Below the pieces are notes generated by a model that was not told the origin of the DNA, did not search any database, and saw only the letters and a program-made list of their open reading frames with translations. Source: Oculina patagonica (Eukaryota). Taken from it: a stretch of DNA of 64,000 bases. Shown piece by piece: positions 51,646 to 64,000 of this stretch (its first letter is position 1; every line of letters starts with the position of its first letter). Where the stretch lies: contig NC_135761.1 in assembly GCF_052425735.1 (NCBI RefSeq), positions 19,406,001 through 19,470,000 of the forward strand. Reading direction: 5' to 3'. The translations under genes were made by a program, and so were the position numbers.

Positions 51646-51873
51646 TTATATTACATTTTCAATATAATATTTTTGTATTTTTATCAGATTTTTGAACATG
51701 TTTTTATGTAGGATCATATTTGATATAATACCGAGATCAGTACAAATGTTAACTAATCTATTTGATTGTTCCTTTTCACTTAATTGTAAGAAAAGTGTAT
51801 TGTCTTTAATGCAATGTTTTTCTATGATATTCATCATCTCAACGAATTTTTCTTTGATGTAATTTGATGTCAT
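51646..51873 (-). CDS. Viral hypothetical protein (75 aa)
   Basis: ATG preceded by ATATTATA like other viral genes. Confidence 0.55.
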   Translation of the reverse strand: MTSNYIKEKFVEMMNIIEKHCIKDNTLFLQLSEKEQSNRLVNICTDLGIISNMILHKNMFKNLIKIQKYYIENVI

Positions 51874-51920
51874 TATAATATTTATTATACATTATTTTTT
51901 ATATCATTTATACAGTGCGT

Positions 51921-52121
51921 TTAATCTGATTTTTTGTTGTAAATGATGCTGTTATTAATATGCTTTTGTGTCAAAAGATGTCTCCATTTACCGGATAATT
52001 TATAGTTATAATTATTGCAAATGACACAAAACCATTCCTTTTTAGATGCATATAAAGTCTTGGACCTTCTTTTTGCATCCATCTTGTCTTTTTCAGTAAA
52101 ATATCTTCGAACTTCAACCAT
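51921..52121 (-). CDS. Small C2H2-type (HxxxxxH) zinc-finger protein
   Basis: CVIC..HLLTQKH with a basic N-terminus; TATATATAAATG start. Confidence 0.7.
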   Translation of the reverse strand: MVEVRRYFTEKDKMDAKRRSKTLYASKKEWFCVICNNYNYKLSGKWRHLLTQKHINNSIIYNKKSD

Positions 52122-52464
52122 TTATATATATACTTTAGAAATTTTTATATATTTTTAACCGACAGTTATGGTAAATTTTTAATGTTATATATTTCTTGTG
52201 ATTCGTTATTTTTTATATATATTTATGACTTTTTTAAAATTATGGTGATTAATATTTTATAGTTCAAGGTTAAACATCTGCATTATTGTCATGGTTTCAT
52301 AATATTTGGTTCAATACAATAGATTCGAATGTTCTATTGTTTATATTAACTAACCAATCATATTACAATAAACTTTTATACAAACTTTTATATAAACGTT
52401 TGTCATAAAATAAACTTTTATTCTCAGAATTGATTCAAGATGCCTAAGTCAATAAGCACGAATT

Positions 52465-53490
52465 TTATATATGTTGTAGATCCTTCATTGGTATCCAACT
52501 ATTAAAATCATCATTATATCCTTTCCACTTCACTAAAGCTTGTTTCTTCTTATAATCCCTCCGAATGACTTTATCAATTCTGAATACGTCCTGTTTTGCT
52601 TTTAACAGTTCAGGTTCATAAAAACTTCCTTGTATGTCTTCATTATTGAGATCTTTCAATTTGTAAGTAATAGGATTAGTGTATTGTATCTTATCGATGG
52701 TAAAAATTTCTTCTGTCCAGTTTGGCGTGTACCCTTTATCGAAAATATTTCTTTTATACTTCGATATTCGAACCTTATCACCTATTTTGAATTTCGGTTT
52801 CTGTTTTGATGTTTTCATATCACCGTATAAATTGAAATATACTAAGCCTTCATTCTTTTTCCTCGATGCTTCTACGGGTGTCATTTTAATGCTTGAGTGT
52901 TTGGTATTATTATACTGTTTTAACAGCTTGGGTAGCATATCGAGGTACGTCGTATTACCTTGAGCAGTGAATTGTTTCCACATTCGGGTTTTAATTGTCC
53001 TATTCCATCGTTCGCATACGCTACTTTTCTCTTCATTTTCGGTTGAGTATAGTGTTATACCATTCTTTTCCAAAAGCTCCTTCATATTTTTATTGTAATA
53101 CTCTTTCCCTTTATCAGTCCAAAGATATTGAGGTTTACGCCCCTCTTTGAATATGGTTTTGAATGCTTGAGTTACAGTTTCACCTTTTTTGTCTTTTAGA
53201 GGCACTATCCAACCATATTTACTGAAAACATCCAGTACCATGAGAAGATATCTATATCCCTTGTTCCATTTACTAAACTGTTGCATTTCTACCAAATCCG
53301 AACACCATATTTCATCAATATGGTTAACTATAACACGTCGTTTAGTAAAGTTACGTTTTATTGCTGTATGTAATTCATCAGCTAATTTTTCTTGCCATTT
53401 TTCTTCACCTGTCGTTTTTTTACGTTTTTTTTGGCTTAACACCCAAACCCAACTTTTCCTTTGTTGCAATGGTATTACGAGCAATAGCAT
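52465..53490 (-). CDS. Retroviral-like (rve) integrase with C-terminal chromodomain
   Basis: WCSD, LWTDKG, SVCERWNRT catalytic DDE; FRIDKVI..ALVKWKGY..NSWIP chromodomain; GYTPNWTEEIF Polinton motif. Confidence 0.95.
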   Translation of the reverse strand: MLLLVIPLQQRKSWVWVLSQKKRKKTTGEEKWQEKLADELHTAIKRNFTKRRVIVNHIDEIWCSDLVEMQQFSKWNKGYRYLLMVLDVFSKYGWIVPLKDKKGETVTQAFKTIFKEGRKPQYLWTDKGKEYYNKNMKELLEKNGITLYSTENEEKSSVCERWNRTIKTRMWKQFTAQGNTTYLDMLPKLLKQYNNTKHSSIKMTPVEASRKKNEGLVYFNLYGDMKTSKQKPKFKIGDKVRISKYKRNIFDKGYTPNWTEEIFTIDKIQYTNPITYKLKDLNNEDIQGSFYEPELLKAKQDVFRIDKVIRRDYKKKQALVKWKGYNDDFNSWIPMKDLQHI

Positions 53491-54121
53491 GACCCCATTG
53501 TCTGTCTTTCCACGGAATAGAATCGAGGGCTTTTACCATCTTTTTATCAGCTTTGTTTTTGCATTTAACCTGATCTTTTGAGGGTTTATTTGCACAGACG
53601 CTGTAATCTACATCATGTTGCATCGATACAGCATCTGTTTTACCAGTTGGTTTTTGATATATCTTAAGTATTTTACCAGTATTTGGATCCCATTTGACCT
53701 GTTTTTCAAGAGGATTCCCGGGACCGGTATATTTATGGCCGGGTATAACAAAGCCTTCTTTTGGAGCTACTTTCAGAATAGCTTTGTGGATATCAAAACC
53801 CTTACCCTTTTTATAGTAATCAACATTGTCTTTTACACCTTTGAGAGTTTGACCTGCTAAAATTCTTGCCATTGAAGCAAAGCTAGGTGATGGAGTTACA
53901 AAATTTGATGCTACATAGGCTATTTTATCAACAGTAGAAGGGCCTTTATAACGAGCAAGAGCTCCGCCACTTTGACTTTTGACAAATTTAGTTTTAGTAA
54001 TACCACAAGAAATGCATTCCGATTTGAGCATTAAACGATTGTTTTTTGTTCTCACATATTTTTCAGAACCAGGAACTGAATTAGTTTGTATTTTTTCACG
54101 TACACAATACGATTTAACCAT
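53420..54121 (-). CDS. Parvovirus-type phospholipase A2 (PLA2X) with N-terminal DUF5679-like Cys domain
   Basis: PGHKYTGPGN Ca-binding loop, DAVSMQHDVDY catalytic HD, KADKKM. Confidence 0.88.
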   Translation of the reverse strand: MVKSYCVREKIQTNSVPGSEKYVRTKNNRLMLKSECISCGITKTKFVKSQSGGALARYKGPSTVDKIAYVASNFVTPSPSFASMARILAGQTLKGVKDNVDYYKKGKGFDIHKAILKVAPKEGFVIPGHKYTGPGNPLEKQVKWDPNTGKILKIYQKPTGKTDAVSMQHDVDYSVCANKPSKDQVKCKNKADKKMVKALDSIPWKDRQWGHAIARNTIATKEKLGLGVKPKKT

Positions 54122-54142
54122 TATATATATATTGATTAGATA

Positions 54143-62354: not shown

Positions 62355-62843
62355 ATGACTAAACATCGAAAATGCATATTTACATGGAACCATATATCAA
62401 GCGAACTTACTGAAGAACAAATTATAGAATTGAAAGCTTATTATCAAACATATCATCGAAAATGTTGGGCTTATAAGCAGGCTGTTAAACGTTTCAAAAA
62501 ATGGAAATTATTAGGGAATTCATTGTCTATTCTCTTTGCATCCGGCTCCCTTGTATCAAGTATTGCTACAGGAGGTGTTAGTTTGGTTGCAATTAGTACA
62601 ATAGCGCTTTTAATACAAGGCTGGATGCATCATCAAAATCTCGATTTAAAAATTCAAAATAGTACATATGCATATCAGAGCTACCAGCATTTACTCAACT
62701 CAATTAAAAACACGATGAGATGCGGTGATTACAATCCGTCTAGCGTCATAATTTCAATGAAGAACATTGACGATTATGTGACGGATAGCGGGCCTATAAT
62801 CGACAAGTACCTACGAAAATATGATAAGAAATTTATTGGATGA
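62355..62843 (+). CDS. Two-TM helical hairpin protein (SLATT-like)
   Basis: YHRKCWAYKQAVKRFKK followed by two hydrophobic segments and a helical tail YQSYQHLL. Confidence 0.7.
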   Translation: MTKHRKCIFTWNHISSELTEEQIIELKAYYQTYHRKCWAYKQAVKRFKKWKLLGNSLSILFASGSLVSSIATGGVSLVAISTIALLIQGWMHHQNLDLKIQNSTYAYQSYQHLLNSIKNTMRCGDYNPSSVIISMKNIDDYVTDSGPIIDKYLRKYDKKFIG

Positions 62844-63393
62844 TCCGATTTATTTCGCCAAATTTTAATTCTAAAATCTCATTCCAATACAATTGATAAT
62901 AGGCTAACGTTTTCTTGCTTTTGCTAATTTTGATAAATTCACAAGGTAGATTCATCATCAAAAAAAGCTGTTTAATTATGAATTTGGTTGATATAAGTCT
63001 TTTTCTACCTTTGTTTACAACAGGAATAGCGCCGGATTCGATAATATCAAACACTTTATAAATTCGATTCCTTTGATCACTAGTCAATTGTACCCTATTT
63101 TTAATACATAAATCGTTTAAAACATTCTCAACGTGATACTTCCGATGATATACCGATTTTCGGCGTATTTTATCCATATTTGCATAAAAATCAATGAACT
63201 CATTGTAATAAATAGAACCATGAACCAAACCGCAATTAATACAAACATTTACACCGTTTTGATTTGACATATCCTGCTTACTACAGCAAGGCTTAGCATC
63301 ATTGTTATCTTCTATCAATAGTTGATCGCATAAATGGCATATAGTTTCTTTTAAAATTTTTAATTCATCGTGGATTTCAGAATTACAAACCAT
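62833..63393 (-). CDS. VLTF3 (poxvirus A2)/TFIIB-like late transcription factor
   Basis: CC..VCINCGLV zinc ribbon, YHRKYHVENVL, RKRLIS..FIIKQL..L..KSKKTL..Y..W. Confidence 0.75.
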   Translation of the reverse strand: MVCNSEIHDELKILKETICHLCDQLLIEDNNDAKPCCSKQDMSNQNGVNVCINCGLVHGSIYYNEFIDFYANMDKIRRKSVYHRKYHVENVLNDLCIKNRVQLTSDQRNRIYKVFDIIESGAIPVVNKGRKRLISTKFIIKQLFLMMNLPCEFIKISKSKKTLAYYQLYWNEILELKFGEINRIIQ

Positions 63394-63436
63394 TATATAT
63401 ATAACACATATAACTTCACGGCACAGCTGTTTTGGC

Positions 63437-63615
63437 AGTAAATTTTAGAGTAAACTTTTTGAGTAAACTTTTTGAGTAAACTTTTTGAGTAAACTTTTTG
63501 AGTAAATTTTACTCAAAAAGTTTATATATAAAAAACTTTTTACTTGTTGAAATATGATTGGTCAATAGAAATCAAACCAGATTAAAAAACCTGCTGACGC
63601 GTCAGCAGGTTTTTT
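63437..63615. promoter_or_regulatory. Viral control region: 4 x 13-bp direct repeats, 17-bp-arm inverted repeat, TATA, CCAAT and a perfect 32-bp palindrome
   Basis: (GAGTAAACTTTTT)x4 at 63448-63499; IR 63490-63524; AAAAAACCTGCTGACG|CGTCAGCAGGTTTTTT at 63584-63615. Confidence 0.7.
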
Positions 63616-63683
63616 CGGTCAATGGTTTAGTCATTAATAATTTATAACTTATGGCTAAAACCGTAAACTGAATAATTATGTAT

Positions 63684-63935
63684 TTAATGTTGATCCTTAC
63701 GAGGCCTTCCACGTCGTCGTTTCTGGTCTTCAGGTTTACACTCTAAACGTGCATGATTTTTGTCTTCATTTGATATTTCAGATCTGCTATTTAGGTTCGA
63801 AGATAGCATTTTAATAATACAAATATTAGCTTCAAGGATGCTCTGAATACACCACATTTTATTAATGAAGACTATATCATTCGAGCTTTCATCAGCTTCT
63901 GGCAGGTGTTTGATATTTAATGTAATATCACTCAT
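63684..63935 (-). CDS. Small AT-hook protein
   Basis: C-terminal KRRRGRPRK; TATATATAGAATG start. Confidence 0.65.
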   Translation of the reverse strand: MSDITLNIKHLPEADESSNDIVFINKMWCIQSILEANICIIKMLSSNLNSRSEISNEDKNHARLECKPEDQKRRRGRPRKDQH

Positions 63936-64000
63936 TCTATATATATATATTAAAGAAAATAATTATCACTTAAACGCACTATAAAAAACTGAGGGAAATC

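Follow-up and report, generated by a model that had tools for sequence, protein, structure and literature searches.

A two-part signal at the virion gene starts of VLTF3-bearing Polintons in Oculina patagonica: a candidate late promoter

We analysed 64,000 nucleotides of the Oculina patagonica genome (assembly GCF_052425735.1, contig NC_135761.1, positions 19,406,001 to 19,470,000; referred to as the window), which hold the left part of a Polinton/Maverick element. Most virion genes of this Polinton and its relatives are preceded by a two-part signal: AT[ACG]TAA near −18 and, as the downstream half, a TA run with TATA at −12 to −4 relative to the ATG. This signal lies far above chance and is conserved across divergent lineages. 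The best single explanation is a late promoter that would be served by the Polinton's own VLTF3-like factor acting on host RNA polymerase II; we put its probability at roughly 50%.

The TA run at gene starts

An initial annotation of the window had reported a TA run directly before nearly every viral ATG. All 11 TA-ATG strings quoted in it were found where it had placed them. With a TA run defined as at least five alternating T/A bases ending no more than 4 nt from the ATG, 11 of the 15 open reading frame (ORF) starts inside the window passed; for the whole element it was 12 of 18. The integrase and protease, which had been named as the exceptions, both fail this rule. The ORFs at 57228 and 60006 fail it too, as do two genes past the window edge, those of the polymerase and the second zinc-finger protein. 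For the ATPase, the ATG at 55234 is the second in frame (the first is at 55255), and the N-termini in other copies back 55234.

The run is more frequent than composition predicts. Among AT-matched host ATGs (triplets, not annotated starts), 5 of 114 passed the same rule, versus 12 of the 18 element starts (p=3e-9). Within the element, 21 of 770 other ATGs passed, and 5 of 67 where the AT content was at least 0.8 (p=6e-7). Dinucleotide shuffles gave 3.4±1.6 starts, and none of 2000 reached 12.

Two simple causes were ruled out. The run is not a 3′-end signal of the upstream gene, since each gene of the divergent pair around 55235..55325 has its own run. In terms of the Kozak preference, T at −3 is a poor translation context, and T was the base at −3 in 40 of 63 starts; hence, Kozak optimisation was rejected as well.

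The initial annotation had found the TA half. The upstream half, the second gene class and the likely reason for the integrase and protease exceptions had been overlooked.

The two-part signal across elements

The own-genome set comprised this copy and 20 further VLTF3-bearing elements, with starts taken from protein homology or the first ATG and near-identical upstream sequences collapsed. After two broken fibre-gene fragments were removed from 37, 35 virion-module starts remained. TATA began at −12 to −4 in 29 of them (shuffled sequences: 12.5±2.7), and AT[ACG]TAA was found at −25 to −12 in 26 (shuffled: 7.0±2.3). The 35 starts from 21 elements span capsid lineages that are ~30% identical to this copy.

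Both this signal and the −33 motif described below were defined post hoc on the own-genome starts. A held-out set of 78 metagenome loci, with VLTF3 identities of 33–64%, provided 28 new virion starts, 17 of them from one gene. Here, TATA was present in 25 of 28 and AT[ACG]TAA in 20 of 28, and 0 of 500 shuffles reached either value. The VLTF3 starts of the metagenome loci carried TATA in 15 of 18 cases. The form T[CG]TAA was found in 20 of 35 own-genome starts vs 6 of 28 metagenome starts.

The TA run could also be a translation or re-initiation signal on multi-gene transcripts, or the result of drift in AT-rich spacers. The gaps between genes had been described as mostly 10–70 bp; in fact, just 7 of 14 gaps fall in this range (11–38 bp), but these seven fit such a reading. 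Moreover, 6 of 26 upstream TAA in the own-genome set are just the stop codon of the preceding gene, and in the metagenome set this holds for 3 of 20. After dropping the starts with a possibly stop-derived TAA, AT[ACG]TAA remained in 12 of 19 own-genome and 17 of 20 metagenome starts, so a stop-codon artefact was ruled out for the upstream half. Composition-preserving shuffles fail to reproduce the motif, divergent gene pairs each carry their own run, the base at −3 is mostly T, and a second motif, located at a fixed distance, sets the gene classes apart. All four points argue against a non-promoter origin, which we consider quite improbable.

The family as a whole is a mosaic (L015–L054). Its capsid modules belong to three or more lineages, with capsids ~30% identical to this copy. 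These modules lie in either orientation and are found in free combination with VLTF3, SLATT-like and integrase genes that are closely related.

A second motif at polymerase and zinc-finger genes

The motif had been called element-wide. This does not hold, because the polymerase and most zinc-finger genes carry another one: CTTAAAG, TATAAAG or CTTAAGG was found at −40 to −24 in 10 of 13 polymerase or zinc-finger starts and in 0 of 35 virion starts (p=4e-8). Among the polymerase starts, all seven variants had it. In this copy, CTTAAAGA and TATAAAGA precede the ATGs of the polymerase and zinc-finger genes by ~33 nt (L013:1340-1385 and 1705-1748). The sole polymerase-class start of the metagenome set was without the motif. 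Judged from the sequences, the two-part signal likely represents a late and the −33 motif an early promoter class.

The VLTF3-like factor

The identification of a VLTF3-like gene at 62833..63393 was borne out by Pfam (PF04947, E=3.4e-6, 27.3 bits vs a cut-off of 25), and the Atlas score of its product to VLTF3 clusters was 0.97. The genome contains at least 150 matches to the gene (150 of 312 candidates were scored), many of them intact. In the other elements, the frame was intact in 24 of 30. The median dN/dS was 0.33 (16 pairs with dS>0.1), and the gene is under purifying selection.

C22, C36, C51, C54 and G55 were invariant in 90 homologues. The structural model (pLDDT 74.5) shows a single helical domain of the cyclin type at residues ~70–186. 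Residues 41–80 are of low confidence and include a beta-hairpin (42–51). The predicted layout, a cysteine ribbon followed by one cyclin fold, resembles the first half of TFIIB.

A sequence search of solved structures gave nothing below E=0.03, and no Foldseek match to the PDB or to viral models reached E≤0.001. Among the viral models, Foldseek ranked highest a Tetraselmis viridis virus S1 protein (weak, E=0.08), VLTF3s of giant viruses and a TFIIB of viral origin. Relatives of the VLTF3 or the capsid were found neither in the viral contigs nor in the phage collection. A complex prediction with the TBP core of an annelid as a stand-in, run without alignments, scored 0.01, which has no bearing either way.

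A second, diverged VLTF3-like frame (27–32% identical) lies beside the integrase at L015:1640-2137, L087:1612-2109 and L089:1583-2080.

The signal in families with no VLTF3 match

Ten elements chosen by their ATPase represent two families (B and C) outside the VLTF3-bearing set (family A). A profile built from 97 VLTF3 sequences had no match below E=0.16 among their 3146 frames. In family B, TATA was present at −12 to −4 in 15 of 25 starts, AT[ACG]TAA was not enriched (2 of 25), and an upstream T-run, defined post hoc, preceded 13 of 25. In all six full-length family B elements, a conserved ORF (four intact, two broken) takes the place of VLTF3 and runs toward the SLATT-like gene in convergent orientation. 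The C-terminal domain of this ORF (L059:3530-4183) has a predicted cyclin fold, with ORC6 on top (Z 6.0) and TFIIB at 5.4. It has no cysteine ribbon, and two homologues were found. An Atlas search with the protein returned unnamed clusters alone, with low recognition. Upstream element and factor both change from family A to family B (two cases only).

These families bear on a host-only reading, in which basal host factors would read the AT-rich signals and VLTF3 would act elsewhere, e.g. with Rb/cyclin partners or at a replication origin. TATA near the ATG with no detectable factor in family C fits this reading, as do the top fold matches of VLTF3, which are ORC6, cyclin F and Rb rather than TFIIB. 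Polintons are also described as dependent on nuclear host enzymes (PMC4405056). On the other side, 3 of 43 long-ORF starts in the flanking host DNA had TATA-ATG (neither AT-matched nor verified genes), and the joint difference of upstream element and factor between the two families would have to be explained. A canonical transcription start lies downstream of its TATA box. A box abutting the ATG would place this start within the coding region, and the African swine fever virus (ASFV) paper argues likewise. We consider promoters read by host factors alone unlikely.

The signal in giant-virus and virophage contigs

The combination ATCTAA-N2-8-TATATATAATG was found in at least 121 stretches of viral contigs, of which 80 were examined. 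It started an ORF in 49 of the 80, vs 3.6% of ATGs. Among 41 of these ORFs that were scanned were two virophage minor capsids, two A32 ATPases and 35 without a family. Eighteen of the 80 contigs were named giant-virus metagenome-assembled genomes (MAGs). At neighbouring starts, TATA was present in 42 of 78 cases in giant-virus MAG loci and in 93 of 193 in the others (loci selected by the motif). The upstream half was not enriched at the neighbouring starts of the giant-virus MAG loci (10 of 78). As TATA-ATG is frequent in these contigs, it is a widespread trait of this virus group and not special to this Polinton.

This leads to a virophage-like dependence as another alternative: the polymerase or late factor of a helper virus would read giant-virus late promoters, and the Polinton VLTF3 would tune or compete with it. 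The viral ORF starts and the giant-virus MAGs just described agree with this. In addition, TCTA serves as promoter both in mavirus and, for late genes, in Cafeteria roenbergensis virus (CroV; PMC5294985, PMC8547959). An endogenous mavirus is described as silent until CroV infection (10.1101/068312), and certain integrated polinton-like viruses (PLVs) require a giant virus (10.1101/2025.10.09.676808). However, the Polinton has its own late factor, which is under purifying selection and present in many intact copies. All hallmark genes are reported as expressed in about half of one coral's Polintons (PMC11131425). The best viral fold match of VLTF3, weak as it is, comes from a virus described as autonomous, and VLTF3 is outside the genes that the text lists as common to helper-dependent TsVs. 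Finally, the lack of enrichment of the upstream half at neighbouring starts in the giant-virus MAG loci speaks against a helper. We consider dependence on a helper unlikely. A search of the host genome for a nucleocytovirus capsid gave no match, and its control was likewise silent.

Integrase and protease frames

Both the integrase and the protease frame are open upstream of the first useful ATG, and at A-runs they overlap the ends of the upstream genes (53420-53532, minus strand; 59395-59530, plus strand). The conserved sequence of the protease in this copy starts before its first ATG (59635), and no Met precedes the anchor. A programmed −1 shift would have the downstream frame at −1 and an X-XXY-YYZ heptamer within the overlap. 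In the 31 elements, the protease was at −1 in 16 (all 16 with an A-run heptamer), in one frame in 6 and at +1 in 2; it gave no clear result in 6 and was absent in 1. A Met before the conserved anchor was found in 14 of 18 split copies, which may mean that one lineage has a start of its own. For the integrase, 27 of the 31 elements were listed. The offset was −1 in 14, of which 13 carry the heptamer at the same place, and +1 in 8, among them this copy; 4 had a single frame and 1 gave no clear result. No Met precedes the conserved N-terminal motif in 21 of 22 split copies. The RNA downstream of the putative shift sites folds weakly (−6 to −12 kcal/mol over 70 nt, with no shuffle control).

The frame relations suggest that the integrase and protease are likely without starts of their own and are likely read via frameshifting or polymerase slippage. 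Splicing, decay or assembly errors in the A-runs may also account for the overlaps.

Proposed late-promoter system

No RNA polymerase gene was found among the ORFs of the Polinton. If the two-part signal is a late promoter served by VLTF3, transcription would begin inside the TA run, with leaders of ~0–10 nt. VLTF3 would touch the polymerase by its cysteine ribbon and DNA or TBP by its cyclin fold, and the −33 motif would serve as a TATA box for host TBP. The integrase and protease would be produced by frameshift from the transcript of the upstream gene and would thus need no promoter. A more tentative extension, to which we give clearly less weight, is a minimal early/late programme of the giant-virus style in the host nucleus. 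In such a programme, a protein with a zinc ribbon and a single cyclin fold would replace TFIIB and retarget polymerase II to a family-specific, two-part late promoter giving near-leaderless mRNAs, integrase and protease would be dosed by frameshifting, and factor and upstream element would change together between families.

Several results weigh against a late promoter read by VLTF3. In ten further own-genome elements, 0 of 5 new virion upstream sequences (mostly broken frames) had the upstream motif; these elements are not an independent test, as the same modules are reused. The fold matches of VLTF3 are tied, and none reaches a Z of 8 (ORC6 7.7, cyclin F 7.4, Rb 7.0, TFIIB 6.5, Brf1 fusion 6.3). 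The TFIIB alignment comprised 104 residues with a root-mean-square deviation of 4.0. The earlier term 'TFIIB-like' agrees with the predicted cyclin fold, but the match fails to separate TFIIB from ORC6, cyclins and Rb. The second cyclin repeat, a hallmark of TFIIB, is absent from the 186 amino acids, and VLTF3 was therefore not filed as TFIIB, although it may act in a similar way. Family scans of the Polinton ORFs gave no match to VLTF2, TBP or capping-enzyme families. The family B protein did not match the VLTF3 profile significantly (probability 1.3%). Family C had TATA within 20 nt of the ATG in 9 of 13 starts and at −12 to −4 in 5 of 13 (reached by 26 of 500 shuffles), and neither a VLTF3 match nor a candidate factor was found in it; this weakens a strict one-to-one link between motif and VLTF3. 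A helper would be just as compatible with the ATCTAA and TATATATAATG at virophage capsid genes and with the frequent TATA-ATG of giant-virus and virophage contigs. The gene of VLTF3 bears a TA start as well, which leaves its first activation unexplained. Four contig sets of uncertain type, compared with the element, yielded no transcript starts, ends or usable splice joints.

Should the late-promoter reading be true, the switching of Polinton virion genes, for which we found no published description, would gain a candidate mechanism. A system of one factor and one motif in an 18-kb element would make questions on promoters and VLTF3 tractable. It would also bear on whether giant-virus late promoters could work with a host polymerase, a step in the proposed evolution from Polintons to giant viruses. 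VLTF3 is a marker gene of giant viruses, and Polintons are abundant in animal genomes.

Comparison with known systems

VLTF3 has been reported in a subgroup of stony-coral Polintons (PMC11131425); the main text has no promoter analysis, and structural genes form a separate expression cluster there. This copy shares with the coral Polintons of PMC11131425 and PMC8502044 the polymerase, integrase, ATPase, capsid, adenain, PLA2-like gene, terminal repeats and 6-bp duplication. The word 'promoter' occurs 0 times in the main texts of both papers, and 'frameshift' occurs once in that of PMC8502044, about pseudogenes. PMC11296320 gave 0 matches to promoter terms. In the main texts of the open literature, we found no account of Polinton promoters or recoding, and in the open literature no VLTF3 structure or mechanism. 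VLTF3 in coral Polintons is therefore already known, and for the promoter architecture no prior description was found.

The placement of the TA run had been likened to the ASFV late initiator, and the resemblance is real. ASFV late genes are described as starting within TATA, with a median leader of 9 nt and AU slippage (PMC7163114), and their promoter has TATTT upstream (PMC5294985). Both systems have TATA by the ATG and an AT-rich element ~10–15 nt upstream, with very short leaders in ASFV. The T-run and TATATA of family B come closest to the TATTT and TATATA of ASFV. Unlike this Polinton, ASFV encodes polymerase, TBP and TFIIB itself and is cytoplasmic; its starts were mapped, whereas those proposed here are predicted from the sequence.

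A late factor of CroV has been proposed to awaken integrated mavirus, and TCTA is common to both viruses in the texts of PMC5294985, PMC8547959 and 10.1101/068312. The CroV late, mavirus and endogenous mavirus-like element (EMALE) promoters resemble the present signal in the TCTA-like core, the AT-rich DNA and the short distance to the ATG, and mavirus is an integrating virus of similar size. Unlike mavirus, which is proposed to borrow the CroV factor, this Polinton encodes VLTF3.

Medusavirus has VLTF3 and no RNA polymerase (PMC8557863), i.e. a viral late factor combined with dependence on the host polymerase, as proposed here. Mriyaviruses are described as small carriers of VLTF2 and VLTF3 (PMC11253617). 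PMC4405056 describes Polintons as nuclear and transcribed by the host. Some PLVs depend on giant viruses (10.1101/2025.10.09.676808) and others are autonomous. The VLTF3-bearing nucleocytoviruses differ from the Polinton in having VLTF2 too and much larger genomes, and the medusavirus motifs are different.

ORF24 of KSHV (Kaposi's sarcoma-associated herpesvirus) mimics TBP and is part of a multi-protein complex. Unlike this complex, the proposed Polinton factor would be one protein resembling half of TFIIB. Late activators of the ORF24 type are described as viral mimics of a basal factor that redirect host polymerase II to late promoters (PMC12529657).

Structure and gene content of the element

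The Polinton is 18,187 bp long and extends from 51222 to G000:C4:19475408 (L013:6408), 5.4 kb beyond the window edge. The start at 51873 given earlier was corrected, and the right end lies outside the window. The part past the window holds another zinc-finger gene and the gene of the protein-primed DNA polymerase (L013:1748-5509; PF03175, E=5e-19), as well as a 213-amino-acid ORF and the right terminal repeat. The features of a Polinton are present: polymerase, integrase, terminal repeats, 6-bp duplication, double jelly-roll capsid, A32 ATPase and adenain-like protease. In Pfam, the integrase matched rve (E=9e-14) and a chromodomain. The capsid (PF21738, E=3.6e-10) and the ATPase (PF04665) exceed the cut-off, and the protease (PF00770, E=5e-4) is slightly under it. 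The features are listed in Table 1.

Table 1. Features of the Polinton within the window (positions of the window; start-codon distances in nt)
Feature	Position	Strand	Basis or upstream sequence
Left 12.8 kb of the Polinton	51222..64000		Termini comparison and Pfam genes
6-bp target-site duplication	51216..51221		Identical hexamer beyond the right end
Left terminal inverted repeat	51222..51445		224 bases identical with the right end
Small zinc-finger-like ORF	51921..52121	-	TA run at ATG; TATA-box-like TATATAAAA near −30
Integrase open frame (rve and chromodomain)	52465..53532	-	Overlaps end of PLA2-like ORF at A-run
DUF5679 and PLA2-like ORF	53420..54121	-	ATCTAA at −20; TA run 54122-54132
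DUF5679 ORF	54143..54586	-	TA run 54587-54595
A32-like packaging ATPase	54599..55234	-	TA run 55237-55246
Divergent spacer	55235..55325		Own TA run toward each flanking gene
Conserved 371-amino-acid ORF, no family match	55326..56441	+	ATCTAA at −16; TTATAT before ATG
Probable minor capsid protein	56454..57206	+	Position and conservation; no significant Pfam match; ATCTAA at −13, GATATA before ATG
Basic 143-amino-acid ORF, probable core protein (inferred)	57228..57659	+	TA run set back, −18 to −12
Major capsid protein, double jelly roll	57684..59033	+	PF21738; ATGTAA at −20; TATATA before ATG
Conserved 152-amino-acid ORF upstream of protease	59072..59530	+	ATGTAA at −17; ATATAT before ATG
Adenain-like protease open frame	59395..59994	+	−1 relative to upstream ORF; A-run in overlap
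Fibre-like 720-amino-acid ORF, weak YadA-stalk match	60006..62168	+	TA run at some distance from ATG
SLATT-like two-helix membrane protein, weak match	62355..62843	+	ATATAA at −15; ATATAT before ATG
VLTF3-like factor, 186 amino acids	62833..63393	-	Cys-rich N-terminus and predicted cyclin fold; TA run 63394-63403
83-amino-acid ORF ending RRGRPRK	63684..63935	-	TA run 63938-63950

The 371-amino-acid ORF is tentatively labelled PZ. The 83-amino-acid ORF has the longest TA run (13 nt) and is 73–99% conserved in most copies. We take its C-terminal RRGRPRK to be an AT-hook-like motif, and its product is a candidate cofactor for AT-rich promoters. Between this ORF and the VLTF3 gene, a 13-bp unit occurs four times in tandem and a fifth time in inverted orientation (63440-63524), followed by a perfect palindrome centred on GACGCGTC (63581-63618). 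Repeats and palindrome might serve as an origin or in regulation.

The outer 74 nt of each terminal repeat (51222-51295; L013:6335-6408) form an imperfect palindrome with a hairpin of about −29 kcal/mol (DNA parameters). Of 30 other elements, 7 in which this terminus pattern was detected have the hairpin too, and one more shows the terminal motif but no hairpin. It may play a role in priming or end processing.

A host CTHRC1-like collagen gene with two or more exons (47852-48993) lies 2.2 kb from the insertion.

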